From contig JAKFXN010000003.1 of NCBI GenBank assembly GCA_021731405.1, positions 44,676 to 108,675 on the forward strand: a DNA stretch of 64,000 bases, given 5' to 3'. The notes beneath the pieces were generated by a model. The model was given only the letters and a program-made list of their open reading frames with translations, was not told the DNA's origin and did not search any database. Both the position numbers and the translations under genes were made by a program. Position 1 is the first letter of the stretch, and each line of letters starts with the position of its first letter. Source of the DNA: Candidatus Parcubacteria bacterium. GTDB lineage: Bacteria; Patescibacteriota; Minisyncoccia; Phycocordibacterales; UBA918. Shown piece after piece: positions 25,031 to 42,495 of this stretch.

Positions 25031-25058
25031 TTGCCAAACCCTGAAAAATCAGTATACT
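25031..25058 (+). promoter_or_regulatory. sigma70-like promoter for rplC operon
   Basis: TTGCCA-16nt-TATACT; followed by ~280-nt structured leader. Confidence 0.55.
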
Positions 25059-25341
25059 AACCCCAGTTTCTAAAGACCTACGTACAGCTGGTGTAAGCCA
25101 GCTAGACCAATGGGCACAAACCGCGCATCTATGCTTGGACCTTGTGTTCGCGTATATATGCGCGGTTTGTTGTATCGGTCCTCTTAGAACAAGGCTAAAT
25201 TTTGCAGCTGGCAAATTCCTTTGTCAAAACAGCAGATTTTTCCTCACTGTACTCTTGTACAGCTCAGTCAAAATCTTTGTTTTTCCTCGGACTTTTCTCA
25301 GCTTCAGTATTTAGCTAAATTATAAGTATAGTTCACACGTA

Positions 25342-27045: not shown

Positions 27046-27906
27046 ATGAAAAAGTATAAACCTACTTCTGCTGGCCGACGTGATGGATCGGTCATTGAGT
27101 ACAAGAAAAAACTAACATCAACAGCAAGTAAGCCACTTAAGTCTCTGACAGTTGGCAAGCGAAGTACTGGAGGACGAAACAGTTTTGGGCGTACAACTAA
27201 CCTCTACCGAGGTGGTGGTAACAAACAAACGTACCGTCTTGTGGACTTCAAATACGATAAGAAAAATATCCCAGCCCGAGTAGAAACAATTGAATACGAT
27301 CCAAATCGAACTGGATTTATTGCATTGCTTCTCTTTGCTGACGGAGAACGACGATACATTCTTGCTCCACAGACTCTCGCACAACATGACGAAGTGCTGG
27401 TATCTGAGACAGCTAAGATTAAACCAGGAAATCGTCTACCACTCAGCGCAATTCCAATTGGTACCTTTGTGTACAACATTGAAATCAAGCCAGGAGCAGG
27501 AGCAAAAATCGCTCGTTCTGCTGGTAACTACGCTGAAGTAGTGGCGCATGACAACGGATACACCCTTATCAAGATGCCTTCATCTGAAATTCGAAAAGTG
27601 ATTTCAACTAGTTGGGCATCAGTTGGAGCTGTATCAAACGAAGAAAATCGATTGGTTGACCTAGGTAAAGCTGGTCGAGCACGCCATCGAGGTCTTCGTC
27701 CAAAGAACCGTGGTTCTGCTCGAAACGCAGTAGACCACCCGCACGGAGGAGGAGAGGGTCGTTCACCACGTGGACACCGTCGCGCTCGTACCAAGCAAGG
27801 TCGTCCTACTGGAAAGGGGCAAAAGACTCGTTCACCAAAGAAGTACTCAAATGTCTTCATTGTAGAGCGACGAAAACCAGGCCGGTTGATGGGCGGTAAA
27901 AGGTAA
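27046..27906 (+). CDS. rplB: 50S ribosomal protein L2
   Basis: 286 aa, GRNSFGRTTNLYRGGG, HPHGGGEGR motifs. Confidence 0.95.
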   Translation: MKKYKPTSAGRRDGSVIEYKKKLTSTASKPLKSLTVGKRSTGGRNSFGRTTNLYRGGGNKQTYRLVDFKYDKKNIPARVETIEYDPNRTGFIALLLFADGERRYILAPQTLAQHDEVLVSETAKIKPGNRLPLSAIPIGTFVYNIEIKPGAGAKIARSAGNYAEVVAHDNGYTLIKMPSSEIRKVISTSWASVGAVSNEENRLVDLGKAGRARHRGLRPKNRGSARNAVDHPHGGGEGRSPRGHRRARTKQGRPTGKGQKTRSPKKYSNVFIVERRKPGRLMGGKR

Positions 27907-27945
27907 AACAAAAGACCTACGCGTTAAGCGTAGGTCTTTTGTTTT
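27905..27945. terminator. strong terminator immediately after rplB (operon break)
   Basis: aaaacaaaagacctacgc-gttaa-gcgtaggtcttttgtttt perfect hairpin overlapping stop codon. Confidence 0.85.
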
Positions 27946-27975
27946 AGTACTGTGTCTGCGCACAGTACATACCTT

Positions 27976-28036
27976 TTACCGAGTCGCAGGCATGTTTTCT
28001 TCTCTTTCCTATTACCGAAACGCAGACATGTTTTGC
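27976..28036 (+). repeat. two ~23-nt direct repeats (20/23 identical)
   Basis: ttaccgagtcgcaggcatgtttt / ttaccgaaacgcagacatgtttt, preceded by palindrome gtactgtg-tctgcg-cacagtac. Confidence 0.6.
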
Positions 28037-28114
28037 GACCCGTAGTATACAAAACAAAATATTTGTAATACAGTACGAGTAGCTAGTTTTCCTAACCAAA
28101 TTTTGGAGGTTCCC

Positions 28115-28357
28115 ATGGTATCTGAAAAAGCAGAAATTATGGCCTTGTTGAACGACCCTAAAACAGGATTGGTTCCACAGTTAGACCAGCTGTGTGAACA
28201 AATTAAGTCCATGAGAAAGGAATTGAATTATCAGAGTGACCGAATTCAAAGACTCGCAAATAGCCACCCCGCACACCAGTATGGTCAATCTGGTTTCAGC
28301 GACATGATGCGTGCTTGGCAAAGGACTACCAGTCCATGGACTTGCCAGTCGGAATGA
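28115..28357 (+). CDS. hypothetical small protein (80 aa)
   Basis: GGAGG 5 nt upstream of ATG; own terminator 28383-28409. Confidence 0.5.
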   Translation: MVSEKAEIMALLNDPKTGLVPQLDQLCEQIKSMRKELNYQSDRIQRLANSHPAHQYGQSGFSDMMRAWQRTTSPWTCQSE

Positions 28358-28412
28358 GCGTCCTAAGTGGTAAGAGTTGCTCAAAAGCCCCCGCAACGGG
28401 GGCTTTTTCATT

Positions 28413-28967
28413 TCAACAAATATTTGGCGCAATAACTTTCTTGGCTAGTGAAATGGTAGCGAGCATGAGTATTGCTAGTCCTATATATCCAACCTCGAGT
28501 CCTTGGTAGGGCAGAAATCCAAGAATAGATGAGAATCCAACGAGTCCAAGGAGTGTACTTAAAAGTGCCGTTCCACAAGCGGCACAGCCAACACCAAGAA
28601 GGGCAAAAAATAGCCCTATTCCACTATATAAGTTGGTTTTCATAAGTACTTTTGCACGGGTTGTAAAATAGGTGTATGCAAAAGCGAGGTTTATTCCGCT
28701 TAGTACTGAACCAAGAATAACCAAAATAAGACTTCCTAGCGTGAATGAACTTCCAATGTCAAAAAGGTAACTAAAAATAAGGGTAGTTTTTTCCACCCAA
28801 GAAAAGCTCAGCTTTGAAATACTAAGCAAAGTTTCGCTTTTTTCAACTAAAAGAATAGTAAGAAGAAAAAACAGGGTAGACCCCATAAGTACCATACGAC
28901 TGTCCTTTTTCTGGGCTACTACGCGAAGGCTTTTTAAGAAGGCTTTCATGTGTGTATAGTGTACCAA
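28413..28967 (-). CDS. polytopic membrane protein with intramembrane CAAC (CxxC) motif
   Basis: 4-5 TM helices; LLGVGCAACGTALLSTL inside a hydrophobic segment. Confidence 0.45.
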   Translation of the reverse strand: MVHYTHMKAFLKSLRVVAQKKDSRMVLMGSTLFFLLTILLVEKSETLLSISKLSFSWVEKTTLIFSYLFDIGSSFTLGSLILVILGSVLSGINLAFAYTYFTTRAKVLMKTNLYSGIGLFFALLGVGCAACGTALLSTLLGLVGFSSILGFLPYQGLEVGYIGLAILMLATISLAKKVIAPNIC

Positions 28968-29059
28968 CTATAAAAATAGGTACAATCAAAAACTAGTGGT
29001 CTAGTTTACTACAAAGCTGATAAAAAATATGAATATTTGTATAATAAGACGACTTTTGT

Positions 29060-29734
29060 ATGAAGAACGTACTTGTTATCGGAGGGTCATCGGGAATTGG
29101 TTATTCCTGTGTTTCGCTTTTTCATCAGAATAAGTGGAATGTCTTTGCGACGTATTTATCGCACAGCCGAGAAGGTGACAGGAGAGCTGTTTGGCAAAAG
29201 GTAGATATAACTGATAGTACACAAACTGATGTTTATCTAAACTCCTTACCAAAGCTAGATGCTGTTATTGTCTGCGCCGCAAAAAACAAAACTACAAAAC
29301 TAGAGGGAGTCTCTGCAGAAATTGAGGCAGTATTCAATACAAATCTTATTTCCCAAATACGGTTAATGGTTCCTCTGAAAGTGAAACTTAAAAAAAATTC
29401 ATCAATCATTTTTTTTGGTTCTATTACTGGACAGATTGGATCAGAACATCGAATTGCCTACAGTAGCTCTAAAGCTGCCATAACAGGACTGGTAAAGTCT
29501 TTGTCTCGTGAGCTTGCTCCGCATACTCGTGTGAATGCAATTTCTCCTGGGTATATAAAAACAAAACAATATAGCTTGAATAGTTCGATGAGTGATTCCG
29601 AGAGAACAAAAAAAATATTACTTAAGCGACTAGGAAGACCTGAGGAGGTTGCTGAGTTAGCTCTCTTTCTTTCCTCCGATACTGGGGGTTATATAAACGG
29701 ACAGATCATAAGTATTGATGGAGGTGTCATATAA
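29060..29734 (+). CDS. short-chain dehydrogenase/reductase (SDR)
   Basis: N-terminal VIGGSSGIGYS Rossmann motif, catalytic YSSSK (YxxxK). Confidence 0.85.
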   Translation: MKNVLVIGGSSGIGYSCVSLFHQNKWNVFATYLSHSREGDRRAVWQKVDITDSTQTDVYLNSLPKLDAVIVCAAKNKTTKLEGVSAEIEAVFNTNLISQIRLMVPLKVKLKKNSSIIFFGSITGQIGSEHRIAYSSSKAAITGLVKSLSRELAPHTRVNAISPGYIKTKQYSLNSSMSDSERTKKILLKRLGRPEEVAELALFLSSDTGGYINGQIISIDGGVI

Positions 29735-29736
29735 GT

Positions 29737-30405
29737 ATGCAGAAAAAAGACACTGCAATCATTGTGCTCGGAGGTGGAAAAGGGGAACGCTTTGGTTCAC
29801 TTAAACAGTTTACAAAAATTAAGGGAAAGACCCTTTTGTGTATTGTTGTTGATACACTGCTGGGATATAAGTTAAGTTCAACGCTAGTTCTGGTGGTTCC
29901 AAAAGACAATGTATCGGCTGCAGAGCAGCTGTATAAAAACAATTCTGAAGTTGTAGTGTTAGCTGGCGGGACAAGTCGCTTTGAGAGTACCAAGATAGCT
30001 TTGGATTACCTGCATGAAAAAAAATGTCAGTTCGTTTTTATTCATGATGCGGTACGACCATTTGTTCGAAAGGTAGACTTTCTAAGCCTGCACAAAGCAA
30101 TGGCAAAAGAGAATACCGAAGGCGCAGTATTATTTTTGCCAATAACTGACTCCGTTGTTTCTTCTGGGACTAAAAAAAATCAAATAGTACACCTTGATAA
30201 TACTAAATTGCGAGCTACCCAGACGCCACATCTTTATAAATACAAAACACTTGCTGCGACCTTTGCGTCAACTCGTAAGAAAGTAGAGAACGCAAAATTG
30301 ATGGAGTCTTCTGGGTACCAACTATCTTATGTACTAGGGTCACGTTTCAATATTAAAATTACGCATCAAATAGACATGCCGCTGTTTAAGTACTGGTCTC
30401 TATGA
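29737..30405 (+). CDS. IspD/TarI-like sugar-alcohol-phosphate cytidylyltransferase
   Basis: AIIVLGGGKGERFG...LKQF and IHDAVRP motifs of IspD/TarI family. Confidence 0.7.
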   Translation: MQKKDTAIIVLGGGKGERFGSLKQFTKIKGKTLLCIVVDTLLGYKLSSTLVLVVPKDNVSAAEQLYKNNSEVVVLAGGTSRFESTKIALDYLHEKKCQFVFIHDAVRPFVRKVDFLSLHKAMAKENTEGAVLFLPITDSVVSSGTKKNQIVHLDNTKLRATQTPHLYKYKTLAATFASTRKKVENAKLMESSGYQLSYVLGSRFNIKITHQIDMPLFKYWSL

Positions 30406-32465
30406 AAAAAATATCATTTATCGTTTATTATCCCTACCAGTGGTTTATTTATAAAAATGTTTACAATAAACTCGATCCAACTAAAAGAGAAATTATTGTC
30501 GATCTAGGCTTCCAGCCGCTGCTACAGAATAAAGATCTCGAACAAAGTATCGTTGCTTTACTGACTGAGAACAATGTCACATTTCGAACTTTACAGCATA
30601 TTGATTTTGTACGAGAGAAATACTTAGAAGATTTTTTCTCAAATGTTGAGGTCATTGTGTCTTGTTGGGAAGCCTCCTCGGTGGCGATTCCACAAACGGA
30701 GCATATTAAGAAAGTGGGTATGACCTATGGCATTGCCAAGGAACTAACGTTACTTCGGCCAACTCGTTCAATATACGACGTCATACTTGCTTACGGCGAG
30801 CGCGACAAGAAGCTGTTTGAGTTGATGACAAAATCCATTGCTATCGGTAACCCAAGAGCGGATGCGTTTTACCTAGGTGAAAAGCATGTCACGCCTGATA
30901 TCGCAGCTATTAATACTTTTATTGCCGGAGGCAAACCCTCAGTGTTATATGTACCAACACACGGTGACCTGAGCTCTCTCTCGACTATGAGGGAGACAAT
31001 AGCTAGTCTTGCTCCAAGGTATAACATAATAGTTAAACCCCATTACTACACACTGCGTGAAGACGCGGCTCTTGTCGGGAAGTACAGAGACATACCTGAG
31101 GTACTTGTAGTTGACGATACCGTCGATACCTTTGACGCCATAGCAGCTGTTGATGTTGTACTAAGTGACAATTCTAGTGTCATATTTGACGCTATGCAGG
31201 CAGGTAAGGATATCATCGTGTCTGACTTTTTGTCGCCACACTTCTTAGATACACTTCATAAAAATTTACGCTTTTCAAAGCGAGGACTCATTGGTGCTTC
31301 AACCTATTCAAAAAGTATTGAACAAGAAATTAAGGACAATGATTTAGTGGCTGTTATCAAAAAGCCTGAAGAGTTGGAAACTTTACTGAAAGATATTGCT
31401 GCCATCAATGCAAAATATACAACTAAGCAAGCAGAAATTGTGCGCGAAAATTTTGCTTATACGGACGGACATTCATCTGATAGAGCGGTGAAAATAATTA
31501 ATGAGGTATATGTTGAACCTCGCAATTACACTCCAGGAATTCTCCACCATGCGTATCAGGCGTTTGGAAACAGACTATACCGTACGCTTGTAAACAAAAA
31601 AGAAGAGGACGAAAGATTGAATGCTTCGGGCAAAGATCTGATTGTCTGGATTATTGCCACAACTAAGACCGAAGAAAAAGAGTTGCAGGCAACAGTATAT
31701 TCCGCCTTAGGGAATCCTACCGTCAGTCAGGTATATGTCAGCGGTTTTCCGCGGAAAATTTTCGGAGATAGTGAAAAAGTGCATGAGATGACCCATGATG
31801 AGGTATTAAAGGCTCTCTATGAGACCCTCTCTCTAGAAGCTGATCTTTGTATTACGACACCAAATACCTTACTTAAAAATCTCAGTGCTGCGACAGTATT
31901 TAAGCAAGTAAATGCCAAAGAAGCTTTGTTTTTTGCAGAAAATGGTAGCGCAAAACCATCTCAAGTGTCACAGACACTTGATGTAAGCCTCTTGCTAAAA
32001 AATGAAATATTGAACTACGAAACTGTTTGGCGGGATATATTGCTTGATGTTTCCTATGCTCAAGTTAAATCTTTAGAGAAGTGTGCCGTACTTATTGGGG
32101 TTGAAACACTGCGAGCGCAGCCGCGTATTGATTTCAAGAACATTTCTTTTGAACAGATAAGCGCCTATTGTATAGAAATATATCGTTTGCAGGCTATGCC
32201 TTTTTACGTGATGCCAAACTTCTTTCAAGTACATACAAACCCTGATCCTGAGAGGATGTTTAGTAAATTATCAAACCGTGCGATTTATCTAGAAAAAGAT
32301 GGGCTTAGTGTGTGGCAATGGGCTGATTTCAAGCCAGGTAAGTATATATGGAAATGTGTACGAGGTGATTTAAGGTATGCAAAGCTCCTTCGTCTTTTGC
32401 TGATTAAAGTATTCATTTACACAAAAGTACATTTGCACACAAAAGGTTATATTAAAAGGCTGTAG
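30402..32465 (+). CDS. TagF/TarL-like CDP-alditol phosphotransferase domain protein with ~280-aa C-terminal extension
   Basis: KPSVLYVPTHGD...IIVKPHYYT...VVLSDNSSVIFDAMQAGKDII resemble Glyphos_transf catalytic core; 4-nt overlap with upstream gene. Confidence 0.55.
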   Translation: MKKISFIVYYPYQWFIYKNVYNKLDPTKREIIVDLGFQPLLQNKDLEQSIVALLTENNVTFRTLQHIDFVREKYLEDFFSNVEVIVSCWEASSVAIPQTEHIKKVGMTYGIAKELTLLRPTRSIYDVILAYGERDKKLFELMTKSIAIGNPRADAFYLGEKHVTPDIAAINTFIAGGKPSVLYVPTHGDLSSLSTMRETIASLAPRYNIIVKPHYYTLREDAALVGKYRDIPEVLVVDDTVDTFDAIAAVDVVLSDNSSVIFDAMQAGKDIIVSDFLSPHFLDTLHKNLRFSKRGLIGASTYSKSIEQEIKDNDLVAVIKKPEELETLLKDIAAINAKYTTKQAEIVRENFAYTDGHSSDRAVKIINEVYVEPRNYTPGILHHAYQAFGNRLYRTLVNKKEEDERLNASGKDLIVWIIATTKTEEKELQATVYSALGNPTVSQVYVSGFPRKIFGDSEKVHEMTHDEVLKALYETLSLEADLCITTPNTLLKNLSAATVFKQVNAKEALFFAENGSAKPSQVSQTLDVSLLLKNEILNYETVWRDILLDVSYAQVKSLEKCAVLIGVETLRAQPRIDFKNISFEQISAYCIEIYRLQAMPFYVMPNFFQVHTNPDPERMFSKLSNRAIYLEKDGLSVWQWADFKPGKYIWKCVRGDLRYAKLLRLLLIKVFIYTKVHLHTKGYIKRL

Positions 32466-32489
32466 TTACCTTTTGGTATACTTATCTCT

Positions 32490-33359
32490 ATGTTAGAAAG
32501 TTGGTACGCAGCTCTCCTGAAATTTAAAACATATACATTACTTTGTTTTGATCTTATTAATGATCTCCGTCTGCATGTAATCTTTAACTATTTTCTCGTC
32601 GTTTCGTGGTTTTTGTATGCGTCTGGACTTTCGGCCTCTCGCTCGGTTAGTTACGCCGCGCTTATGGCTTGTTTGGCAGGGTTTAGCTATTTACTCAATC
32701 GCTATACAGACTATAGCTACGATGTGATTGTTGATAGAGGACTAGCAAAAGTATCTCCAAAAGTATATTTAGTATTGTCAGCTTGTTTTTTTGTTTGCGG
32801 ACTCGTTTTGGTCTATGTGTATCCTCAGTATCTTTTCCCAATTATATTGGGAACCTGTCTGGGGATTTTTTATAGTGTGAAGACGATTTTTAAATACCCG
32901 CTTAAGAATTATTTTGTAACAAAAAATTTATTTGCCGCTTTTTCAAAATACTTGGGCACTATGATTGGAGTGCTGCTGGTCATTCCGTTTTCCGAAGGCC
33001 TGCTTATTCGCAGTATTTCGATGTTTGCTTTTCATCTTATCTATGAAATTTTGTGGGACATACGTGACATTGAGTCTGATAGGGCTGGAAATGTTTCAAC
33101 TATTCCAAACAGATATGGCAAGACATTAGCTCTCGTTGTCTGTGTCTTAATATGGCTTATAAGCTTTCAGGCTCAATATTTTGTGGTAAACCATTCGGAA
33201 TACTTCTTTATAAAATATGCTGTTGTGTTATCGATTATATTTTCACTCATTTTTATTACAACGGTGCGCTGGTACCACGTGGCGATTTATATCCACATTG
33301 TTCTTTCACTCATTTTTATCAATAAAGAAGTTATTTTGTTTATACGAAGTCTCTTGTAA
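32490..33359 (+). CDS. UbiA-superfamily prenyl/phosphoribosyl transferase (membrane)
   Basis: LNRYTDYSYDVIVDRG = NxxxDxxxD Asp-rich motif in polytopic membrane protein. Confidence 0.6.
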   Translation: MLESWYAALLKFKTYTLLCFDLINDLRLHVIFNYFLVVSWFLYASGLSASRSVSYAALMACLAGFSYLLNRYTDYSYDVIVDRGLAKVSPKVYLVLSACFFVCGLVLVYVYPQYLFPIILGTCLGIFYSVKTIFKYPLKNYFVTKNLFAAFSKYLGTMIGVLLVIPFSEGLLIRSISMFAFHLIYEILWDIRDIESDRAGNVSTIPNRYGKTLALVVCVLIWLISFQAQYFVVNHSEYFFIKYAVVLSIIFSLIFITTVRWYHVAIYIHIVLSLIFINKEVILFIRSLL

Positions 33360-33362
33360 TCT

Positions 33363-33390
33363 TTGACATTTACAGATAGTAAGGTAGAAT
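33363..33390 (+). promoter_or_regulatory. sigma70-like promoter for GC-rich ORF
   Basis: TTGACA-16nt-TAGAAT. Confidence 0.45.
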
Positions 33391-33466
33391 ATAACCATCT
33401 TTTATAACACTTGGGGTAAGGTACCTTAGGTGGGGAATCATAAAAGAGTTCTTTTAGGAGATTTTC

Positions 33467-33949
33467 ATGAAGCGTCAATCTGCATGCAAAGGACTCTTTG
33501 CATCTCTCGCCATCTCGTTCCTGTGCCTCATCGGCACGTCCGCTTTCGCGCAGGAATCTGGTGTCAAGGCCGTTTCGACCAACAGCGATCCCATGGCACA
33601 AGTGGTGCTGACGGAAGCCGAGGTCCGCGCCCTCGTCACCGACAAGTCGGTCACTTGGGAAGCTGGCCAGTGGGGCCTCTGCCGGAATGACTTCAAGGCT
33701 GACGGTACGTTCACTTTCGAGTGCAACGGCAGCAACAACAAGTACTACGACACCGGCAAGTGGTACTTCAAGGACCACGAGTCCGAGCCTCGTCGCATGA
33801 TCTGTCGTGACTACGACAAGCAGAAAAAGGGGAGTTGTATGTCCATGGCCAGAAGTGAGGCTGGGGAGACCTTCTACTTCTTTGGGTTGTCCAAGAAAAA
33901 ACAAAATAAGGTCACTCGCGTCACCGAACTCGTGCAGGTTCCCATGTGA
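33467..33949 (+). CDS. GC-rich orphan ORF encoding secreted Cys-containing protein (160 aa)
   Basis: GC ~58%; signal peptide MKRQSACKGLFASLAISFLCLIGTSAFA|QE; AGGAG 6 nt before ATG; perfect terminator 33967-33995. Confidence 0.55.
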   Translation: MKRQSACKGLFASLAISFLCLIGTSAFAQESGVKAVSTNSDPMAQVVLTEAEVRALVTDKSVTWEAGQWGLCRNDFKADGTFTFECNGSNNKYYDTGKWYFKDHESEPRRMICRDYDKQKKGSCMSMARSEAGETFYFFGLSKKKQNKVTRVTELVQVPM

Positions 33950-33966
33950 ACAGGCTCGAGCCGAGC

Positions 33967-33995
33967 AAACCGCCAACCCAGTTGGCGGTTTTTTC
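33967..33995 (+). terminator. terminator
   Basis: aaaccgccaac-cca-gttggcggttttttc. Confidence 0.85.
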
Positions 33996-34033
33996 TTGTC
34001 CAAATTTGATGGTACACTGCGTCTAAGACAATT

Positions 34034-35272
34034 ATGAACTGGCTAGAAAAAATATTTCACCATTCAGAACTTTTTACCCAAAGAAGTATCCAAGCGCTAT
34101 ACGTCATCTTGTTTTTTGATCTTGTCTTTACGTTCAACAGCTGGACTTCACAAGGATACCTAACAGTACAAAGTGTAAAAGAAAATGACGCAATCTGCTG
34201 GCCATATTTTCAGAATTGTTTGGATCTGTATGTTTTTCAAGCCATACCGCAAGGCTATAGTTTGGGTATTCTGTACATGGTAATAGGAGGTTTCCTGTTT
34301 ACCTCGCTATATTTTTCCTACAGAGAAAAGTGGGACAAGGCACTGCTTTTTTTAGCAATACCAGCTCTGTTTAAGTTTTTGATGTTGTACGTGTTCTCCT
34401 ATCTGCCAATTGGTAATTACCATGTACTCGGATTGGTATTTGTACTCCTCCTCCTATTTGCTAAGCACAAATTATTCGCACTAAAGGTTGCAGTAACCGT
34501 TTTTTATTTTTGTGCTGCCGCCCTCAAAATTAACGCTGGCTATATTTCAGGCTCAATCTTTTCTTCCTTAGCGCTCGGCGTGCCAATTTTCCCGAATAGT
34601 TTGTTACCGTATTACGGCCTCGTCTTCATACTTATAGTTGTAGCGGTACCCTTTTTCCTCTGGTCGGCTGAATTACGAGTACGTATTATGGCTGTGAGTA
34701 TTTTGGCAGCGTTTCATGTGTATAGTATTACCCTCGTAGGGTTTCGTTTTGCGGCTCTTTGTATACCAATATTGTTTATACTTTTTATACTATCTGATTA
34801 TGAAAAATTCTCTTTCAAGAAAATACGGACAGATGTTTTTTCCTTCATTCTGATTAGTCTGATTATTTTAGGGCAAAGTCTACCTATTATAATTGCCGGT
34901 GATGAAAGAATCACCAGTGAAGGTGAAAAATACGGTTTTTATATGTATACCGCTAATCGACAGTGTATCAGAACGATAAATGTACATTACAAAGATGGCA
35001 CGAGCGCTGAAAATACCTACGAAGACAGAAAGGGGATGAGACGCTGTGACCCCTATGAAGATTGGTTCAGGATTCAGCAAGCGTGTAAGCAAGATACCGT
35101 TTCTCGAATAGAGTGGATTTTTAACGTAAGTATCAATGGGTCCTACTTCTATACTCTGGTTGATGTTCCAAATGCTTGTGTCATAACTGAATATAAGGCT
35201 TTTTCACACAATGACTGGCTAAAAACCGACATTCAAGATACGAGTCTTCCAGTATTAAAAAATAGTATTTAA
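34034..35272 (+). CDS. polytopic membrane protein (~8 TM) with C-terminal extracytoplasmic Cys-containing domain; possible membrane glycosyltransferase
   Basis: Hydropathy only; context next to UbiA/TagF genes. Confidence 0.4.
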   Translation: MNWLEKIFHHSELFTQRSIQALYVILFFDLVFTFNSWTSQGYLTVQSVKENDAICWPYFQNCLDLYVFQAIPQGYSLGILYMVIGGFLFTSLYFSYREKWDKALLFLAIPALFKFLMLYVFSYLPIGNYHVLGLVFVLLLLFAKHKLFALKVAVTVFYFCAAALKINAGYISGSIFSSLALGVPIFPNSLLPYYGLVFILIVVAVPFFLWSAELRVRIMAVSILAAFHVYSITLVGFRFAALCIPILFILFILSDYEKFSFKKIRTDVFSFILISLIILGQSLPIIIAGDERITSEGEKYGFYMYTANRQCIRTINVHYKDGTSAENTYEDRKGMRRCDPYEDWFRIQQACKQDTVSRIEWIFNVSINGSYFYTLVDVPNACVITEYKAFSHNDWLKTDIQDTSLPVLKNSI

Positions 35273-35328
35273 CTACATAAGTGCATAATTTTGCTATCCG
35301 CTAAAATCATTGTGATACCATTAAGGTA

Positions 35329-35598
35329 ATGATAAATAGTATTCCAAAGAAAATAGGGTATCTATTGCTAGCTTTAGCAGTAACTGCTTTAGGGTTTATT
35401 TTATCTCTAATTCCGGCGGGGCAAAAAGCGACCGCTGACGTAGCTATGACAAATGCCGACTATTGTGGCGTTGGTGGTCCTGGATACATGTCAGAATATT
35501 GTTATTCAATTGGATTTTATTATTACACTGACAGCGGTGGCGACGCTGCTGCTGCTTGCGGCGACGCCGCTGGAGCTGACTGTTGCTCTGCTAGTTGA
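35329..35598 (+). CDS. small secreted Cys/Gly/Tyr-rich peptide precursor (89 aa, 6 Cys in C-terminal 45 aa)
   Basis: N-terminal hydrophobic leader then DYCGVGGPGYMSEYCYSIGFYYYTDSGGDAAAACGDAAGADCCSAS. Confidence 0.5.
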   Translation: MINSIPKKIGYLLLALAVTALGFILSLIPAGQKATADVAMTNADYCGVGGPGYMSEYCYSIGFYYYTDSGGDAAAACGDAAGADCCSAS

Positions 35599-35617
35599 TT
35601 GTTCTAAAACTTAATAT

Positions 35618-36667
35618 ATGAAAAGCCCTGTTTTTATTGCCATTGTCCTCGTTCTAATAGCAGTTGTTGTCTTTGCGGCGAGATTGTTTCTTCTTGATCG
35701 AGAAATCACAATGCAAGCTGTGCCTCCTGCTCAAACCGAAGAAGGGAACAACGATGGTTTTGTAGATATTACTAAACAGGCAGTTGAGACAAACTCTGAT
35801 TTACAGGAAGGTATTCGACTTATAGAAAATGGTAGATTTGCCGACGCTCGAGTTTATTTACAAAAAGCGGTAGAAACAGAAACTGACCCAAATACCAAAT
35901 CAGTGGCTGACCTGACATTCGCAAGTACTTACTTTAGGGATAATCAGCCTGAGTTAGCCGCTGAAAACTTATTGCGTGTTGCCAACGAGCCATCGTATCC
36001 TAGCTCTACTCGTGCTTTTGCACTGACGACAATTGTGCAGCAGTATAATGCCACAAAAGACATCTCACTTCTCAAAGTCTTTGGAGACACTGAAGAATTT
36101 AACACCAGCTATTTACTACAGGGAGCACACAGACAAATCGTTACCCTCTTTCCAATGGGTCTGTCAGTCGCATACCTAGCAAGAATCGATATGGATAGAT
36201 TTGCGGATAAAGCTGAAATCACGTATCAAGAGGCAATTGAGAAGATTGACGCAGACATCATTTTTCAAAACAAGGGCCTAGAAAGTAATTATCTTGTACC
36301 GAATATAATGATTGCAAAAGCAAATCTGATGGCTAAAGCAGAAGGCCTTGGGTTTGAAGATCGGCGTGAAGTAATTAAAGCTTATAAAGACGCAATTACT
36401 ACCGCTAAAGAAAAGCTTCAGGCAACTACTGCTCAGTTTGCCATGCTCCAGTACATGAACTACTTGGGTAAAAATGTTGAAGAAAATACGGTACTTATCG
36501 ATGAAGCCCTCGCAATCTTTGAAGCAGAGAAACTAACTGAAATGGTCGTCAATCACTTGGGACGAGAAGAGGTTGTCTACGAGTGGCCAGGGATTATTGC
36601 TATTGCACGAGTAAATGAAGCATACGTTACATTCTTCTCCCAATATGTTCCAGTTCCCCAACAGTAA
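35618..36667 (+). CDS. membrane-anchored helical-repeat (TPR-like) protein
   Basis: N-terminal TM helix, alpha-helical repeats; no catalytic motif. Confidence 0.4.
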   Translation: MKSPVFIAIVLVLIAVVVFAARLFLLDREITMQAVPPAQTEEGNNDGFVDITKQAVETNSDLQEGIRLIENGRFADARVYLQKAVETETDPNTKSVADLTFASTYFRDNQPELAAENLLRVANEPSYPSSTRAFALTTIVQQYNATKDISLLKVFGDTEEFNTSYLLQGAHRQIVTLFPMGLSVAYLARIDMDRFADKAEITYQEAIEKIDADIIFQNKGLESNYLVPNIMIAKANLMAKAEGLGFEDRREVIKAYKDAITTAKEKLQATTAQFAMLQYMNYLGKNVEENTVLIDEALAIFEAEKLTEMVVNHLGREEVVYEWPGIIAIARVNEAYVTFFSQYVPVPQQ

Positions 36668-37184
36668 AGTGTACGCGCTTATTGCCCTAACTCTCGTTTT
36701 AGGGATATTAGTAGCGCTCAGTTTTCGTATTGTTCGCTATACAGACCTCTTGCCCCCACAGATAGTCGACATAAGCCCCGTTGAGGCGTATGAAAACATT
36801 CTTGGTAATCCCGAAAAATACATTCTCATAGATGTTCGCTCTGGTTCTGAGTACCAAAACGCCCACGCTACAGGTTCGGTAAACTTACCGATACATTATC
36901 TCTATGATGATATGCACGGTTTGCCTAATGAACTACGTGTTCCTGTACCAAAAAATACCGATCAGGAGATATACCTTTTATGTACTGGAGGTAGATTGGC
37001 GGGTGTAGCCTATGGATATCTTGAACACCATGGCTATCGAAACATTAAACGAATCGAAGGAGGTATTGCAAACTGGGCAAAAAGTGGGCTCCCGATTATA
37101 ACCAAGTCCCTCTTTTCTGGGACAGAAGTAGATTTTAATACTGCGACAGAGGGTGAGCTCGATAGACCGTATGTTCAAGAATAA
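36645..37184 (+). CDS. membrane-anchored rhodanese-domain sulfurtransferase
   Basis: ILIDVRSGSEYQNAH...LLCTGGRLAG (active-site Cys loop). Confidence 0.75.
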   Translation: MFQFPNSKVYALIALTLVLGILVALSFRIVRYTDLLPPQIVDISPVEAYENILGNPEKYILIDVRSGSEYQNAHATGSVNLPIHYLYDDMHGLPNELRVPVPKNTDQEIYLLCTGGRLAGVAYGYLEHHGYRNIKRIEGGIANWAKSGLPIITKSLFSGTEVDFNTATEGELDRPYVQE

Positions 37185-37884
37185 GGGCTTAATTCTTTTT
37201 CTCCTCGTCGTATTTTTTATAGGATCGGGTTTATTTCTTTATACAAATGAGGAAAGAGTACCAGAACAAGAAATAAACCTAAGTGAGACACTGACTATCC
37301 GTGAGAACGAACATTATCTTAGCTTTGCAGAGGATTCAGAATACACTGTTGTTGAATACCTAGACTTTGACTGCGTTTTTTGCAGGCGGTTACATCTGGA
37401 ATTAGACAAAGGAGGAGTCGATTATTCTAAAATTACCTATATCATCAGAAGTTTTCCAAGCACAGGCGTAGTCTTGTATTCAAAAAAAGCCTTAATTGCT
37501 GAATGTATATATGACCAAAGTGGAGACGCAGGGTACTTAGCCTTTATTGATTTGTACTTTAAGACCTGGGGTAATAAAAATGACCTTACTTGGGCAACTA
37601 AGATTGCGGAAAATCTTGTGACTGACAAGGACGCTTTATACAATTGTTTAGAAAACAACCAAGCAATAAAAGATACTATCAGTAGTAATTTTACGCTTGA
37701 TAGTATTGCTGGCGTTACGCAGACTCCTTCGTTTTATGTTTATAAAAACAATGTACTTGAACAAAAGTTTGTTGGACTTGGAGCAAAGACATACCGAAAC
37801 TTAATGAGGTATTACTCTCGAAATAGTAGGGGGTATTTAAATACCTGGACGACGCTCCCGCTTTTTGAAAATGTACGCCGATAA
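37171..37884 (+). CDS. DsbA-like thioredoxin-fold thiol:disulfide oxidoreductase (membrane anchored)
   Basis: N-terminal TM helix; LDFDCVFCRRLH CxxC active site. Confidence 0.7.
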   Translation: MFKNKGLILFLLVVFFIGSGLFLYTNEERVPEQEINLSETLTIRENEHYLSFAEDSEYTVVEYLDFDCVFCRRLHLELDKGGVDYSKITYIIRSFPSTGVVLYSKKALIAECIYDQSGDAGYLAFIDLYFKTWGNKNDLTWATKIAENLVTDKDALYNCLENNQAIKDTISSNFTLDSIAGVTQTPSFYVYKNNVLEQKFVGLGAKTYRNLMRYYSRNSRGYLNTWTTLPLFENVRR

Positions 37885-38157
37885 TTTTTTCTGCTCTCCA
37901 AGCGCATGAAATATATGGGGCGCAATATCTGGGTTGCAGTGCACTGCCACTTTTTGAACGCCTTGCCCTGATATCAAAAGTTCCATCCCAGCGTTAGTAA
38001 AAACAGCAGTGACCCTTCTCTTGCCGCTCTTGCTTTTTCCTTGCGTAATAATACCTGGTGAAACAAGAGTTACTCCAGGTATTTTTTCAAGGAGAACAAC
38101 TACTTCCTCGGCGGTCTCGGTCAGAGTTGAGTGGGTACCACCACGAATGTTCTTCAT
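37837..38157 (-). CDS. hypothetical protein (106 aa)
   Basis: ORF only. Confidence 0.35.
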   Translation of the reverse strand: MKNIRGGTHSTLTETAEEVVVLLEKIPGVTLVSPGIITQGKSKSGKRRVTAVFTNAGMELLISGQGVQKVAVHCNPDIAPHIFHALGEQKKLSAYIFKKRERRPGI

Positions 38158-38249
38158 TACTTAAGTGTAGCAAAAATGGACTGTCTTTGCTTATGTATTC
38201 CAGTTTAGCCCCTTAACCTTTTTCTTAACAAATGACATACTAGAGGGTA

Positions 38250-38846
38250 ATGGAAGACGATGTGCTATATGTAAATAGATGTAAAGCTGGTGACACAGAA
38301 GCTTTTGGCGTATTGTACGATCGGTACATAGATAAAATCTATCGATTTGTTTTTTATAAAACGTTTGTTAAAGAAGTGGCGGAAGATATCACAAGTGATG
38401 TATTTCATAAGGCACTGCAAAAGATTAATTCTTACGAAGCTGACAGGGGCGTATTTAGCGCTTGGATATATCGTATCGCCCGCAATAATGTGATTGATTA
38501 TTACCGCAGTCAGAAAGGAGACGTACCGCTTGAGGATGTATTTGACGTTGGGTTTGATGAACGTACTCCCGAATCGCTCGACGCCATTGCGGCCCTTGAT
38601 AAAGTGAATGTGTATCTTGAGACTTTGAGTAGTAAGCAGCGGGAGATCATCACCCTTCGGGTTTGGGAAGAGCTGCCTTACCTCGAAATTGCCGAGATTG
38701 TGGGCGGTACGGAAGATAGTGTAAAGATGGCTTTTTCTCGCAGTATCCGTGAATTGCGTGAAAAGTGTGGACCCATTTCACCCCTACTTCTCTTTGTGGC
38801 GGTTGGGTTTTCAGAGCAGGCGTTACTTTTTCATGATTTTACGTAA
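38250..38846 (+). CDS. ECF (extracytoplasmic function) RNA polymerase sigma factor
   Basis: sigma-70 region 2 (YDRYIDKIYRFVFYK...DITSDVF) and region 4 (LSSKQREIITLRVWEELPYLEIAEIVG). Confidence 0.85.
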   Translation: MEDDVLYVNRCKAGDTEAFGVLYDRYIDKIYRFVFYKTFVKEVAEDITSDVFHKALQKINSYEADRGVFSAWIYRIARNNVIDYYRSQKGDVPLEDVFDVGFDERTPESLDAIAALDKVNVYLETLSSKQREIITLRVWEELPYLEIAEIVGGTEDSVKMAFSRSIRELREKCGPISPLLLFVAVGFSEQALLFHDFT

Positions 38847-38856
38847 TACATAGTAT

Positions 38857-39648
38857 ATGAAGGATTCGCTTGAATTAATTATTAAAGACATCTATACCCT
38901 TGATCCGTCGCTCGTAGAGCAAGACGGTGAGGTACGGGCTTTGGTGAGTGCTCTTTCGGAGCAGAAACCAGTAGTCGTGATAGATGCTGCTTTTGTGCAA
39001 TCTTTGCGCGCTGACTTAGTGAAACCTGCTCGGGTGATGCCTGTTGTTGCCCCAACACCGTCAGCTTGGTGGATGGTATATGGAGCACCAGTTGGGGTTC
39101 TGGCACTCTTGCTGATTATGCTTATACCGAAGACGGAGCCTATGCGCAATGAAGTTCCAACCATTGCCCCTTCGCCAGTAAGAGAAGCAGATATGTATCT
39201 TGAGTCTTCGGATGGGGCGCAAGAGACTAAGCGTTCAGCTCCCGCCAGTGGCGCTGCCGAGTCAATGATGATGGAAGCAGATACTATGATGATGTCAGCT
39301 CCGGTGTCTGGAGACACCTTCCAAATCAGTACCCAAGCGCCTGGAGACACGGTCGTAGTAGACTTTGCCTCCCTTGAACAAGCGGGGTACTTAGTTATTC
39401 AAGCTTATACAGAAGAAGGTCCAGGAGAAATCCTTGGTACTAGTCCGCTCTTGGCTGCCGGTATGATAGAGCAGGTTCAAATTGTCTTGAATTTAACCAC
39501 AGAGCCTGACCAAACCTTCTTTGCGGTCCTATATCGAGACGATGGCGATGGGTTGTTCTCACTTGAAGCAGACATGATGGTCTATGACCAAAGTGGTACG
39601 GTACCGTTCTCACAAATGTTCTCAACTACACCGGCTCCACTCCCATAA
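38857..39648 (+). CDS. putative anti-sigma factor (single-pass membrane protein)
   Basis: Immediately downstream of ECF sigma, cytoplasmic N-term + one TM (WWMVYGAPVGVLALLLIMLI) + extracytoplasmic domain. Confidence 0.55.
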   Translation: MKDSLELIIKDIYTLDPSLVEQDGEVRALVSALSEQKPVVVIDAAFVQSLRADLVKPARVMPVVAPTPSAWWMVYGAPVGVLALLLIMLIPKTEPMRNEVPTIAPSPVREADMYLESSDGAQETKRSAPASGAAESMMMEADTMMMSAPVSGDTFQISTQAPGDTVVVDFASLEQAGYLVIQAYTEEGPGEILGTSPLLAAGMIEQVQIVLNLTTEPDQTFFAVLYRDDGDGLFSLEADMMVYDQSGTVPFSQMFSTTPAPLP

Positions 39649-39691
39649 TAGTGTTACCCTTAAGCTACAACTGCGTAGTACAAAAGAGGAA

Positions 39692-39729
39692 AGAAATTGC
39701 TTATGTCCTTGGGACATAAGCAATTTTCT
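39692..39729 (+). terminator. terminator
   Basis: aaattgcttatgtcc-ttgg-ggacataagcaatttt. Confidence 0.8.
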
Positions 39730-39771
39730 AAATGAGCATATTTTCTTAATAAAAATAATAGTAATAATCAT

Positions 39772-40785
39772 ATGGAATTTATCAAAAAGATTGATTGGAG
39801 TAAGCCAGGAATACAGCTCGCGTTTGTGGGTCTGTTTGGCGTATTCGCTTTTATAGTATTGTCGGGTACCAGTATTCAAAACCCAATGCCTTCATTCTCT
39901 AAGGACAGTGAAGAAGCGATGTATTATGGCGATGGCTATGCGGTTTCGTCAGATATGGGCATGGGATATGGACAAGAACTTTCTCTTCGTAATGTAGAAG
40001 GAAGCATCATGCCACCAATGCCAGATTTTGCCCCAGGCAATGACGCTGAAGCGTATGAGGTAAAGCAGTACTCAGCTACTATCGAAACTAGAAACCTAGA
40101 AGAGGATTGTTCTACTGTACGTTCACTCATGGAGCGCGAAGATGTTATCTTTCAAAATAAAAATGAATACGAACAAGGATGTTCATATAGTTTTAAGGTA
40201 GAGAAGGAGAGCGTTGAGGAAGTGCTAGCTATCTTAGAAGCGCTTGATCCAAAAGATCTTAGTGAAAACTCCTACACCATTAAGCGTGAAGTGGCTGATT
40301 ACACGGGAGAGATTGAAATTCTCGAGAAGAAGCTCGCTACGCTAGACCAGACTCTGACCCAATCGCTCGCCAGTTATGACACCCTAAGTGCACAAGCAAC
40401 TGCTCGAGGCGACGTAGCAACGCTCGCTCAGATTACTGAAAGTAAGATAACCCTTATTGAGCGCCTAACTATCACTCGTATTGATACTGTCGGACAACTC
40501 GATAGACTAGCTCGAGCGAAAGCTGAAGCGCTTGACCAGCTCGTGTACACAAACTTCTACGTAAATATTTACGAAAACACCTTCGTAAACGGTGAAGAGA
40601 TTAAGACTTCGTGGATAGAAGCGGTTAAAGAATTGGTGCGAGAGATCAACACCTTCGCACAAGAGGTAAGTCTTGGGTTTGTAGCACTCTTGTTTATGGT
40701 AGTGAAATATTCACTTTACGGTATCGTACTACTCTTTGTAGCTCGCTTTGCCTACTCATTCGCTCGAAAAGTCTGGACTTCATAG
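39772..40785 (+). CDS. DUF4349-like protein (N-terminal TM, coiled coil, C-terminal TM)
   Basis: Architecture and position next to ECF/anti-sigma pair. Confidence 0.45.
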   Translation: MEFIKKIDWSKPGIQLAFVGLFGVFAFIVLSGTSIQNPMPSFSKDSEEAMYYGDGYAVSSDMGMGYGQELSLRNVEGSIMPPMPDFAPGNDAEAYEVKQYSATIETRNLEEDCSTVRSLMEREDVIFQNKNEYEQGCSYSFKVEKESVEEVLAILEALDPKDLSENSYTIKREVADYTGEIEILEKKLATLDQTLTQSLASYDTLSAQATARGDVATLAQITESKITLIERLTITRIDTVGQLDRLARAKAEALDQLVYTNFYVNIYENTFVNGEEIKTSWIEAVKELVREINTFAQEVSLGFVALLFMVVKYSLYGIVLLFVARFAYSFARKVWTS

Positions 40786-40846
40786 TCAAATAGACCCAAT
40801 CGGTAAGATATTGCAGGATGCTCCGTCAACGTAAATAACAAACACT

Positions 40847-41059
40847 ATGTACGAAAAAGCTAAAACATTTACACTTTCAAAACCACTTCTCAAAAAGATA
40901 GTTGGTGGAGTGTTGGTGCTGATTGGCTTTGTGGCTCTTATCACGCCATTGACACCAGGAGCTATACTCTTCCTCTTCGTGGGCTTTGAGTTTCTTGGCC
41001 TCAGGTTTATGTTCCTCGACCGCCTTATTGGACGAAAACCAGCCTCTGCCTTAGAATAA
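40847..41059 (+). CDS. small membrane protein (70 aa, two TM)
   Basis: ORF + terminator 41088-41120. Confidence 0.45.
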   Translation: MYEKAKTFTLSKPLLKKIVGGVLVLIGFVALITPLTPGAILFLFVGFEFLGLRFMFLDRLIGRKPASALE

Positions 41060-41121
41060 TTGCAAAGGAGAACCCTAGGTAAAACGTAAAAGCCGCAAAT
41101 CCTATGGATTTGCGGCTTTTA

Positions 41122-41219
41122 CTATGCAAAATAAGACTCGATTGAGCATAATTATTGACTTTACTCATAAATTATGCTATTATACTAGCAGTACAGTCTC
41201 ATCCCGAGACTAAAGGAGT
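41122..41219 (+). repeat. copy A of 97-nt promoter-operator-RBS module
   Basis: 94/97 identical to 41508-41605; contains TTGACT-17-TATTAT, inverted repeat gcataattat/ataaattatgc around -35, hairpin agtctc-atccc-gagact, AAAGGAG SD. Confidence 0.9.
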
Positions 41220-41224
41220 TCGTC

Positions 41225-41440
41225 ATGTTGCACCCCGAAGCAAAAAACTTGCCCGCTACCAAGGAAGAAACACTCACAATGATCGAAATTGTGAAGTCGA
41301 CACTCGTTTTCGACAAGGAGGCTCTTGCAGATGCCGTCGATGAAGGTGACTACTACAAAATTCTGGAAGAGCAGCGCGAAGTCGCTGATTCCGAAAAGGA
41401 CCTCGCCGCGCTCGAAGCACATCTCTTGACCTTCCAGTGA
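41225..41440 (+). CDS. cassette A cargo: acidic 71-aa helical protein
   Basis: ATG 6 nt after SD of the repeat module; terminator 41447-41490. Confidence 0.55.
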   Translation: MLHPEAKNLPATKEETLTMIEIVKSTLVFDKEALADAVDEGDYYKILEEQREVADSEKDLAALEAHLLTFQ

Positions 41441-41507
41441 AAGATTTACCGCCTTTAAGACAAAACCTGTCTTCGGGCGGTTTTGTTTTGTCTAAAAGCA
41501 GCTCCTG

Positions 41508-41605
41508 CTATGCAAAATAAGACTCGATTGAGCATAATTATTGACTTTACCCATAAATTATGCTATTATATTAGCAGTACAGTCTCATTCCGAGACTAAA
41601 GGAGT
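41508..41605 (+). repeat. copy B of 97-nt promoter-operator-RBS module
   Basis: see copy A. Confidence 0.9.
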
Positions 41606-41609
41606 TCCC

Positions 41610-41900
41610 ATGAAATTTGTCCTGAACCTTGTTGCTGCCACCCTTGCTGCAATTGGCGCCATCACGCTGATTAATCTCGGTGTTGAAGGCTTCTCGAGAG
41701 AGAAAGCTATCGTCAAAACTGAAAAGTTCGAACCGTCCCGATATGTTCACAGAAATGGGCTTGATAAAGCACAGCTTCTCTGTGAAAAATATGGTGGCAT
41801 TCTCTCCATTGGAGGCATGTATATCCAAGATGGCGTGAGGTATGAGCTCATGTGTATGTATGGGAAGGAGATGACGTTTGAAATCTTGCTTTCAAAATGA
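41610..41900 (+). CDS. cassette B cargo: 96-aa secreted/anchored Cys-containing protein
   Basis: ATG 41610 right after module SD (ORF track offers upstream in-frame start 41541 inside the module); signal-like MKFVLNLVAATLAAIGAITL; terminator 41902-41940. Confidence 0.55.
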   Translation: MKFVLNLVAATLAAIGAITLINLGVEGFSREKAIVKTEKFEPSRYVHRNGLDKAQLLCEKYGGILSIGGMYIQDGVRYELMCMYGKEMTFEILLSK

Positions 41901-42153
41901 CCGCCTTCAGACAAGACTGTCTAAGGCGGTTTTGTTTTGTCTAAAAGACCCCAAAAGGTTGACTTTTCCTCACCATTTGGTACTGTAGGCGGGTTCCAAC
42001 CTCACGCGGGATTGAAGTGTCACCCGCACAAAAGTAGCAGAAGCACAGGTTATTAAGGGTTGGGAATCTCTGTTAAGGACGGCCGTTACCTTTCTTTACA
42101 AGAGATTCTCACAGAGGCGCCACAAGCGCTTATTTATTCGTTGTTAGAAAAAC

Positions 42154-42495
42154 ATGTCACGTTCACTCTATAAAGGACCATACATAGACGAAAAGCTACT
42201 GAAGAAGATCGCCGGCAAGAAAGCCGGAGAGAGTGTAGTCATCAAGACCTGGTCACGCGATAGTGTTATCGCTCCAGAAATGGTGGGATTCACATTTGGC
42301 GTACACAACGGTAAGGATCATATTCCAGTTACCGTCGCCGAAGAAATGGTAGGTCACCGATTAGGGGAGTTCTCTCCAACTAAGAAGTTCCACCGACACG
42401 GAGGAAAGATGCAGAAGGAACTAGAGCAGAAGAAGAAGGAAGCAGAAATCTCAGCCGCAAAAGCAGCTAAGACAACTTCAGCAACTAAGAAGTAG
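42154..42495 (+). CDS. rpsS: 30S ribosomal protein S19 with Lys-rich C-terminal extension
   Basis: [19 protein letters not shown]...[17 protein letters not shown]. Confidence 0.95.

Follow-up and report, generated by a model that had tools for sequence, protein, structure and literature searches.

A probable gene-accretion hotspot at an insulated break between rplB and rpsS in the ribosomal S10 gene series of Paceibacteria

The S10-spc series of ribosomal protein genes is a textbook case of invariant gene order, and its 16 proteins are a standard phylogenetic and binning marker for uncultured bacteria. In the 64,000-nt stretch of DNA analysed here (the window; Candidatus Parcubacteria bacterium, contig JAKFXN010000003.1 of assembly GCA_021731405.1), 14,247 nt separate the end of rplB (L2; 27906) from the start of rpsS (S19; 42154), and this block holds 19 open reading frames (ORFs). 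The source organism is a Paceibacteria bacterium (Parcubacteria, Candidate Phyla Radiation (CPR)). We consider it likely that the rplB-rpsS junction is an insulated operon break that acts as a gene-accretion hotspot.

The general kind is already known, both as the operon break with an internal promoter and as the hotspot flanked by core genes. Multigene insertions have been reported to split the most conserved bacterial gene cluster, the opened site then separating further (PMC6735719, 2019), and insertions at punctuated sites of the conserved ribosomal cluster, again followed by further separation, have also been described (PMC8046335). The insertions of the 2019 study lie between classical operons, whereas the Paceibacteria sites are inside the S10 and spc operons (rplB/rpsS and rplE/rpsN); in contrast to those insertions, the Paceibacteria breaks are fixed lineage-wide, each with a new terminator and a new promoter and leader. 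Hotspots of horizontal gene transfer between core genes, free of mobile elements, are a second precedent (Oliveira et al. 2017, PMC5635113). With these our locus shares turnover concentrated in one interval, no recognisable mobile elements and flanks usable for homologous recombination; it differs in that the flanks are ribosomal genes normally fused in one operon and in that the comparison spans species and genera rather than the pan-genome of one species. What appears undescribed in the literature searched is the position within the S10 and spc operons, the lineage-wide fixation of three junctions, and the pair of RNA motifs described below.

The ribosomal genes next to the break are the following.

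25342-25962: rplC (L3), with the genes for L4, L23 and L2 in tight series after it
27046-27906, plus strand: rplB (L2), Pfam Ribosomal_L2_N and L2_C; closes the rplC-rplD-rplW-rplB unit
42154-42495, plus strand: rpsS (S19), Pfam Ribosomal_S19; opens the rpsS...rplE unit
42508-42831, plus strand: rplV (L22), identified by Pfam

L22, S3, L16, L29, S17, L14, L24 and L5 follow tightly after rpsS. The classical order rpsJ-rplC-rplD-rplW-rplB-rpsS-rplV-rpsC-rplP-rpmC-rpsQ is preserved in the window, while the classical contiguity is broken between rpsJ and rplC (3,029 nt) and between rplB and rpsS. A sequence-only reading of the window had described the second gap as one 14-kb accessory block that disrupts an otherwise intact operon. 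The split itself is real, given the Pfam identities of its flanks and the length of the gap, and three further elements of that reading are borne out: a perfect terminator at the rplB stop, a promoter-like element with a structured leader before rpsS, and a gene content of envelope-polymer, redox, extracytoplasmic function (ECF) sigma and cassette genes, which agrees with Pfam and the ORF listing. The disruption by a single block did not hold up, as the break is found in relatives and the cargo is layered. The interpretation is thus supported in part and needs inversion: an ancient, regulated break point would have accumulated the block, rather than the block disrupting the operon.

The comparison rests on 80 species-level loci, the best L2 matches in a genome-collection scan, all from metagenome-assembled genomes of Paceibacteria/Parcubacteria type and with a top L2 identity of 91%. 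The spacer was measured in the 65 loci that hold both genes and ranges from 14 to 8,120 nt (median 1,222). Only 2 of the 65 spacers are shorter than 60 nt; 51 measure 300 nt or more, and 38 measure 1 kb or more. In the close clade (L2 identity at least 69%; 26 loci in this count) all 26 gaps are at least 260 nt, with a median of 2.4 kb. In three loci rpsS is missing from the roughly 10 kb that follow rplB, and a number of contigs stop inside the gap. Eighteen consecutive junctions from tuf to S5 were then scored as open where the spacer exceeds 300 nt, and three of them are ever open: rpsJ/rplC, rplB/rpsS and rplE/rpsN. The share of loci in which a junction is open is as follows.

S10 to L3: 100% of the close clade, 48% of the more distant group
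L2 to S19: 96% of the close clade, 67% of the more distant group
L5 to S8 (across S14): 93% of the close clade, 90% of the more distant group
Remaining 15 junctions: 0% of the close clade, 0% of the more distant group

The window breaks at the same three junctions, the third by 1,105 nt. Two relatives have gaps with the punctuation present and no cargo gene (L023, 260 nt; L024, 411 nt), and in the most distant relatives, whose spacers measure only 110-150 nt, terminator, promoter and a short hairpin leader are all still present. Across the genomes compared, the break is an old, lineage-wide feature and not a one-off disruption. The sequence-only reading had itself named an ancient arrangement shared by relatives as the outcome that would count against disruption, and that is what was found (63 of 65 relatives with more than 60 nt). 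Three fixed cuts holding kilobases of variable genes suggest that constraint acts on sub-operon modules and not on the whole cluster. The break also explains why contigs frequently end inside this marker block, as four contigs from among the closest relatives do within the gap.

At its upstream edge the gap opens with two elements.

27904-27946, plus strand: rplB terminator, 19-bp perfect arms (27904-27922 and 27928-27946) and a 5-nt loop
27944-28053, plus strand: truncated copy of an operon-end element (covariance model R2, 44 bits, E 1e-9), with hairpin 3 missing

The 19-bp inverted repeat begins with the rplB stop codon (27904-27906). The hairpin folds at -30.2 kcal/mol (z = -8.85 against shuffles) and shows the features of an intrinsic terminator, with a GC-rich stem and a U-run at a gene 3' end. 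An A-run and a T-run flank the stem symmetrically, and the terminator-calling scan missed the hairpin, probably because these runs pair into the stem. The terminator is probably bidirectional. In one relative (L004) the hairpin is all that separates rplB from a convergent DUF2103 gene whose end lies about 60 nt further on, and a bidirectional design would follow from such a convergent stop. Among the relatives, 55 of 78 have a terminator-like hairpin within 100 nt of the rplB stop, compared with 52 of 1500 random windows (3.5%), which were the baseline for both punctuation counts. The stems of the relatives differ in sequence and keep the A-run/stem/T-run symmetry; on this comparison the predicted rplB-rpsS punctuation is conserved by function, not by sequence.

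The operon-end element is about 155 nt long with three hairpins and stands directly after the rplB terminator in 15 loci; 25 of its 36 pairs show compensatory changes. It also follows rplE in 7 loci, with a weak copy in the window at 45733-45834, as well as fusA in L024 and an ABC-F gene in L022; a further possible, weak copy lies after secY (50725-50875 of the window). It is always co-oriented with the gene and sometimes tandem; besides the window copies, the matches comprise L011 3455-3615, L029 10902-11062 and 20 others. In the 1.39 Mb searched it was seen only after rplB, rplE, fusA, the ABC-F gene and, weakly, secY. Against Rfam, even permissive E-values returned only noise. REP/BIME, BOX and ERIC are small structured intergenic repeats sited after operon ends. 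The operon-end element resembles them in being multi-copy, sometimes tandem, orientation-specific and placed after highly expressed genes; it differs in its three-hairpin architecture, strong covariation and unrelated sequence.

At the downstream edge the rpsS unit has its own predicted start.

About 41959-41990, plus strand: rpsS promoter, sigma-70-like, TTGACT-17-TACTGT
41992-42153, plus strand: rpsS leader of about 160 nt, with the 5' motif GUUCCAACCUC, P0, a variable P1, P2, and P3 with a U-run
42061-42111, plus strand: P2 hairpin, -21.7 kcal/mol, z = -4.75
42115-42140, plus strand: P3 hairpin and U-run, flagged as terminator-like by the scan

In 18 relatives the promoter has the architecture TTGACTTT...GGTAYTCT or CCGTACTATAG. 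Of the 65 loci, 58 have a TTGACN-spacer-(-10) site in the 400 nt before rpsS, compared with 91 of the 1500 random windows (6%). In the close clade the predicted transcript starts at the conserved GUUCCAACCUC and continues through P1, the 51-nt P2, the short GC hairpin P3 and a U-rich tail. An alignment of 15 P2 sequences supports 18 pairs, with 94.8% of cells paired and compensatory changes at 7 of the 18; the covariation score of 0.33 (0.19 in shuffles) is reached by none of 500 shuffles, and all slid controls are clearly lower. The G-U pairs of P2 agree with the plus strand. A covariance model of P2 (R1) finds one match per locus in 17 loci, always upstream of rpsS, and none elsewhere in 1.36 Mb; in the window, with filters off, the match is single and the runner-up scores 11 bits. 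One R1 match runs off the end of the L001 contig; from its position, the gap of this closest GTDB relative is about 4.9 kb. P0 is formed by GUUCCAACCUC pairing with 42057-42063, just 5' of P2. It is present in the minimum-free-energy fold, its duplex energies are 2-3 standard deviations better than shuffles in most loci, and a few compensations occur in L030, L031 and L034. The leader thus carries a position-specific, covarying 5' untranslated region (5'UTR) structure of the type that marks ribosomal-protein leaders.

In E. coli these operons are classically regulated by L4 and S8. Neither protein is encoded in the rpsS-rplE unit, which makes a new feedback operator plausible. With the E. coli S10 leader (L4 attenuation) and other ribosomal-protein leaders, the rpsS leader shares a structured 5'UTR and a hairpin with a U-run before the first gene. 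The E. coli leader sits before rpsJ, whereas that of Paceibacteria precedes rpsS and has another sequence and structure; since the L4 gene lies in the upstream unit, any ligand of the rpsS leader must differ from L4. We infer that the leader is an attenuation-type feedback operator responding to a ribosomal protein that the rpsS-rplE unit encodes. A survey of 20 leader motifs includes none for S19 or for CPR (Eckert & Weinberg 2020, PMC7247131). Rfam gave no match at the gathering threshold in the window and only noise at E-values up to 10 for 40780-42160. A 5S-rRNA-like or 16S-3'-end-like motif in the leader was considered and dropped, as no tool result supported it. In seven loci (L005, L006, L007, L013, L016, L018 and L034) a long imperfect hairpin of about 110 nt stands between P3 and the rpsS start codon, 130-160 nt before rpsS, which argues against P3 acting solely on translation initiation. 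No Shine-Dalgarno sequence precedes rpsS in 42120-42156 of the window, where an A/U-rich stretch runs from P3 to the start codon; the nearby small cassette ORFs, by contrast, have clear GGAG sites.

The contiguity of the block is independently supported, and the block is no assembly artefact. That unrelated contigs were fused between rplB and rpsS, as the sequence-only reading had wished to see excluded, might be suggested by the source, an assembly from an uncultured organism, and by the contigs of L001, L002, L003 and L029, which break within the gap. A 756,721-bp contig (GCA_040384005.1; L091), found by homology search with the TagF-like protein of the block (88%-identical match), excludes it: L091 runs rplC-rplD-rplW-rplB, the matching block gene series and then rpsS-rplV. 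It is collinear with window positions 28415-41221 at 81% nucleotide identity, with ribosomal flanks at 93-94% and L2 at 98.6% amino acid identity, and it conserves every block protein at 39-98% except two small ORFs. An ENA metagenome contig (L092) continues from rplB (99.3% amino acid identity) into the block, and three Logan read assemblies (SRR10388053, SRR10388057 and SRR10388054) are 99.8-100% identical to 36436-39620 and cross the overlap of the Thioredoxin_4 and DUF2103 genes. The junction genes are all full length, and a chimera is very improbable. Exact-protein look-ups with the window L2, S19, 178-aa membrane protein, 96-aa ORF and TagF-like protein returned no records.

The cargo between the two punctuated edges is the following.

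28115-28410, plus strand: 80-aa small ORF (ORF listing) with its own bidirectional terminator (28384-28409)
28413-28949, minus strand: 178-aa multi-pass membrane protein, with homologues in the same gap of L029 (49%), L091 (84%) and L092 (64%)
29060-33359, plus strand: tight or overlapping genes for a short-chain dehydrogenase/reductase (SDR), an IspD-like cytidylyltransferase, a TagF-like phosphotransferase (687 aa) and a UbiA prenyltransferase (Pfam)
33363-33991, plus strand: high-GC cassette of a promoter, a 160-aa secreted DUF995-like ORF (33467-33949) and a terminator (33967-33991)
34034-37884, plus strand: overlapping ORFs for a 412-aa membrane protein, an 89-aa product, a 349-aa tetratricopeptide repeat (TPR)-like protein, a rhodanese and a DsbA-like Thioredoxin_4 protein (Pfam)
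37837-38157, minus strand: DUF2103-like gene, the conserved antisense anchor of the gap
38250-40785, plus strand: ECF sigma factor, putative anti-sigma factor (transmembrane segment and DUF7282) and DUF4349-like membrane protein (Pfam)
40847-41122, plus strand: 70-aa membrane ORF with a 17-bp perfect terminator (41086-41122)
41112-41947, plus strand: two cassettes, with a 71-aa ORF (41225-41440) and a 96-aa ORF (41610-41900), and repeats D1 and D2

The 14.2 kb would be a mosaic built up in layers from some eight transcription units, each self-contained. The oldest layer would be the antisense DUF2103-like gene, found in the rplB-rpsS gap and always antisense in 22 of the 80 loci, as well as in L091. 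Next would come a genus-level module of the ECF sigma, anti-sigma and DUF4349-like genes with a membrane protein. The ECF genes occur in the same order in L001, L002, L029 and L091, and this series together with the 70-aa ORF (71% identical in L001 and 96% in L091, and also present in L002) is common only to these four and the window. The third layer would be an 8.8-kb polymer and thiol-redox segment put between two formerly adjacent minus-strand genes in an ancestor of three genomes: it is present only in the window, L091 and L092, where it separates the membrane gene from DUF2103, whereas in L029 the homologue of the membrane gene abuts DUF2103. L2 identity is at least 98.6% among these three, and genomes at 85-91% have no such segment; the simplest reading of this distribution is a gain in the common ancestor of the three closest genomes. 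Small edge cassettes, differing even between sister genomes, would be the last layer. By their distribution the block edges are its youngest parts: the 80-aa ORF has no homologue in any locus, L091 included, the 71-aa ORF is likewise absent from all loci, and the 96-aa ORF is only 39% identical in L091, which has one such unit.

Turnover is also visible within the shared segment. In L092 (3560-4968) SDR and IspD-like genes lie on the opposite strand and are non-orthologous (IspD 27%, no SDR match), and TagF and UbiA are 54% and 74% identical to those of the window although rplB is almost unchanged; at the nucleotide level the flanks are 89% and the cargo 65-70% identical. This pattern resembles allelic replacement in surface-polymer loci. 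Capsule and O-antigen loci hold variable surface-polymer genes between conserved flanking genes. The likeness lies in the near-identical flanks of L092 and in its polymer genes, 54-74% identical and partly replaced or inverted; unlike those loci, the block has no export or priming genes, and the comparison is one of three genomes. Elsewhere among the relatives the gap genes are unrelated and include peptidoglycan-binding, DUF3298, histidine kinase, YdjM, HlyD/MacAB-type ABC/FtsX and PhoH-PIN genes, with an IS200-like transposase in two loci; of 294 gap ORFs in relatives, 198 clusters are confined to one locus. The same core-gene interval thus holds different gene sets among relatives, as expected of a hotspot.

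A single island, acquired recently, inserted into a still intact S10 operon and equipped with punctuation of its own, might account for several of these features. The GC content of 29060-37836 is 0.40 (0.44-0.45 in the backbone), one ORF reaches 0.73 at third codon positions (GC3), the polymer segment is absent from L001, L002, L029 and L004, and in L094 the SDR-IspD-TagF genes form a module too, within an unrelated, polysaccharide-type locus that lies far from the ribosomal genes. Yet the break, terminator, promoter and leader exist in relatives that lack the cargo, gene-free gaps included, and at least four age layers can be told apart in the cargo. Pfam, PHROGs and PADLOC scans of the block ORFs found no integrase, recombinase or transposase, the window holds no tRNA, and a repeat search found no att-like direct repeats bounding the block or the 8.8-kb segment. 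In the compositional comparison of block and backbone that the sequence-only reading had suggested as a check, GC is mildly shifted and one ORF deviates strongly; the tetranucleotide distance is no larger than elsewhere in the window. The island is largely refuted as an account of the block as a whole, and we regard it as improbable.

Another possibility is a functional link between cargo and ribosomal genes, through read-through or shared growth-rate control, with the cargo sited there for co-regulation or dosage and not because the site is merely permissive. In favour of this, the cargo genes mostly run in the direction of the ribosomal genes, the DUF2103-like gene has a stable association with its position in at least 22 species, and the rplB terminator could be leaky. 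The cargo functions are, however, wholly different between relatives; the conserved anchor gene is itself antisense; every unit comes with promoter-like and terminator-like sites of its own; and no cargo protein has a translation-related domain. Coupling of this kind seems to us unlikely.

We thus favour the insulated break as the explanation. In the Paceibacteria lineage the tuf-S10-spc series would be partitioned at three fixed junctions, rpsJ/rplC, rplB/rpsS and rplE/rpsN. At the second of these a strong, A/T-symmetric intrinsic terminator behind rplB would close the upstream unit, and the rpsS-rplE unit would start from its own conserved sigma-70-type promoter and structured leader. By this punctuation the two ribosomal units are predicted to be separate transcripts. 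Because the junction is already punctuated, inserted DNA would interrupt no transcript, and the interval would therefore tolerate gene gain, loss and replacement. The near-invariant core genes on both sides could act as recombination anchors, and homologous recombination in these conserved flanks presumably drives the turnover of cargo. The break would then be a defined place to seek, in very small genomes, surface and regulatory genes that vary from strain to strain, and the rpsS leader and operon-end element are two candidate new RNA motifs, both directly testable.

Several points weigh against this explanation. Read-through from rplB or co-transcription across the block may occur. Divergence between the window and L091 in the block (81% nucleotide identity) is not above that in the rpsJ/rplC island (73%), so that accelerated turnover is evident only at the block edges and in L092. 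The gain rather than loss of the 8.8-kb segment was judged by a ranking of L2 identity, not by a phylogeny, and the taxonomic extent of the break is bounded by the sample of 80 best L2 matches. As to the leader, the U-runs of P3 are imperfect, the fold of P3 in the window is no better than shuffles (z -1.26), and a search of E. coli genomes found no sequence similar to the leader, leaving no easy lead towards rRNA mimicry.

A broader version is tentative, and we put it forward as a possibility that we do not favour at present. The S10-spc supercluster may have been re-partitioned into four autonomous modules (tuf-rpsJ, rplC-rplB, rpsS-rplE and rpsN-secY), each with a lineage-specific promoter and leader and a terminator and end element; the rpsS leader (P0-P3) might be a new attenuator bound by a protein never known to autoregulate (S19, L22, S3, L16, L29, S17, L14, L24 or L5); and the three breaks might be the main sites of envelope and regulatory gene variation.

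Among the individual cargo genes, 29060-33359 is probably a cytidine diphosphate (CDP)-alditol or alditol-phosphate polymer operon. Its TagF-like protein carries Pfam Glyphos_transf, and a promoter-like site (29017-29045) precedes the four genes. All NCBIfam matches of the polymer genes are far below the equivalog cut-offs, and Pfam found no TagO, TagA or TagB priming enzyme and no TagGH exporter among the block ORFs. The DUF995-like cassette that follows has a GC content of 0.55 in the 0.40-GC neighbourhood, and its ORF is the one with the GC3 of 0.73; the promoter matches 11 of 12 positions, and the product has a signal peptide and is 86% identical in L091. The public gene call of L091 at this place is an antisense ORF, probably a mis-call. 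The genes of 34034-37884, kept in L091 at 69-88% amino acid identity, probably form a thiol-redox and envelope operon. The 412-aa membrane protein was considered as part of a travelling cassette and the idea was rejected, as its metagenome homologues are at most 37% identical and unlinked to other block genes. No phage or defence families were found in the unknown block ORFs by PHROGs and PADLOC.

The DUF2103-like protein has 159 database homologues, and the few with a named source are Parcubacteria, Paceibacterota or Nomurabacteria. Its AlphaFold2 model is alpha/beta (pLDDT 82.6) and has no significant match in the PDB; the weak matches are mostly to one small chain of eukaryotic large-subunit ribosomes (TM-score about 0.5, by target length). 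The two cassettes at 41.1-41.9 kb share a duplicated 110-nt promoter and 5'UTR (41112-41221 and 41498-607, 94% identical) and a duplicated terminator tail, and their ORFs are unrelated. Each promoter (41155-41183 and 41541-41569) is followed by a small hairpin before the Shine-Dalgarno sequence; the 71-aa product is acidic, and the 96-aa product has an N-terminal transmembrane segment. An integron cassette array was rejected here: integrase and attC are both lacking, and what the cassettes share at their flanks is a promoter/5'UTR and a terminator.

Further observations concern the rest of the ribosomal series. The spacing between fusA and tuf is about 980 nt (19701-20677) and contains an ORF without a Pfam match. 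Directly upstream of fusA (before 17523) no rpsL or rpsG is visible, so the str operon may be fragmented too. The rpsJ/rplC break (22313-25341, after rpsJ at 21935-22312) holds genes for a DCC1-like thiol oxidoreductase (minus strand), a TPR protein and a 445-aa unknown protein; a terminator (about 24990-25015), a promoter-like site and an untranslated leader of about 290 nt precede rplC. This junction is open in 23 of 23 close-clade loci, with a median of 2.2 kb. The rplE/rpsN break (45720-46647), open in about 90% of relatives, contains in order an operon-end element, a terminator, and a promoter with a 109-aa ORF (46099-46428; no Pfam match) and its terminator. The rpsN gene encodes a short Zn-type S14 and is preceded by a TTGACTTT...GGTACTCT promoter and a leader of about 130 nt.

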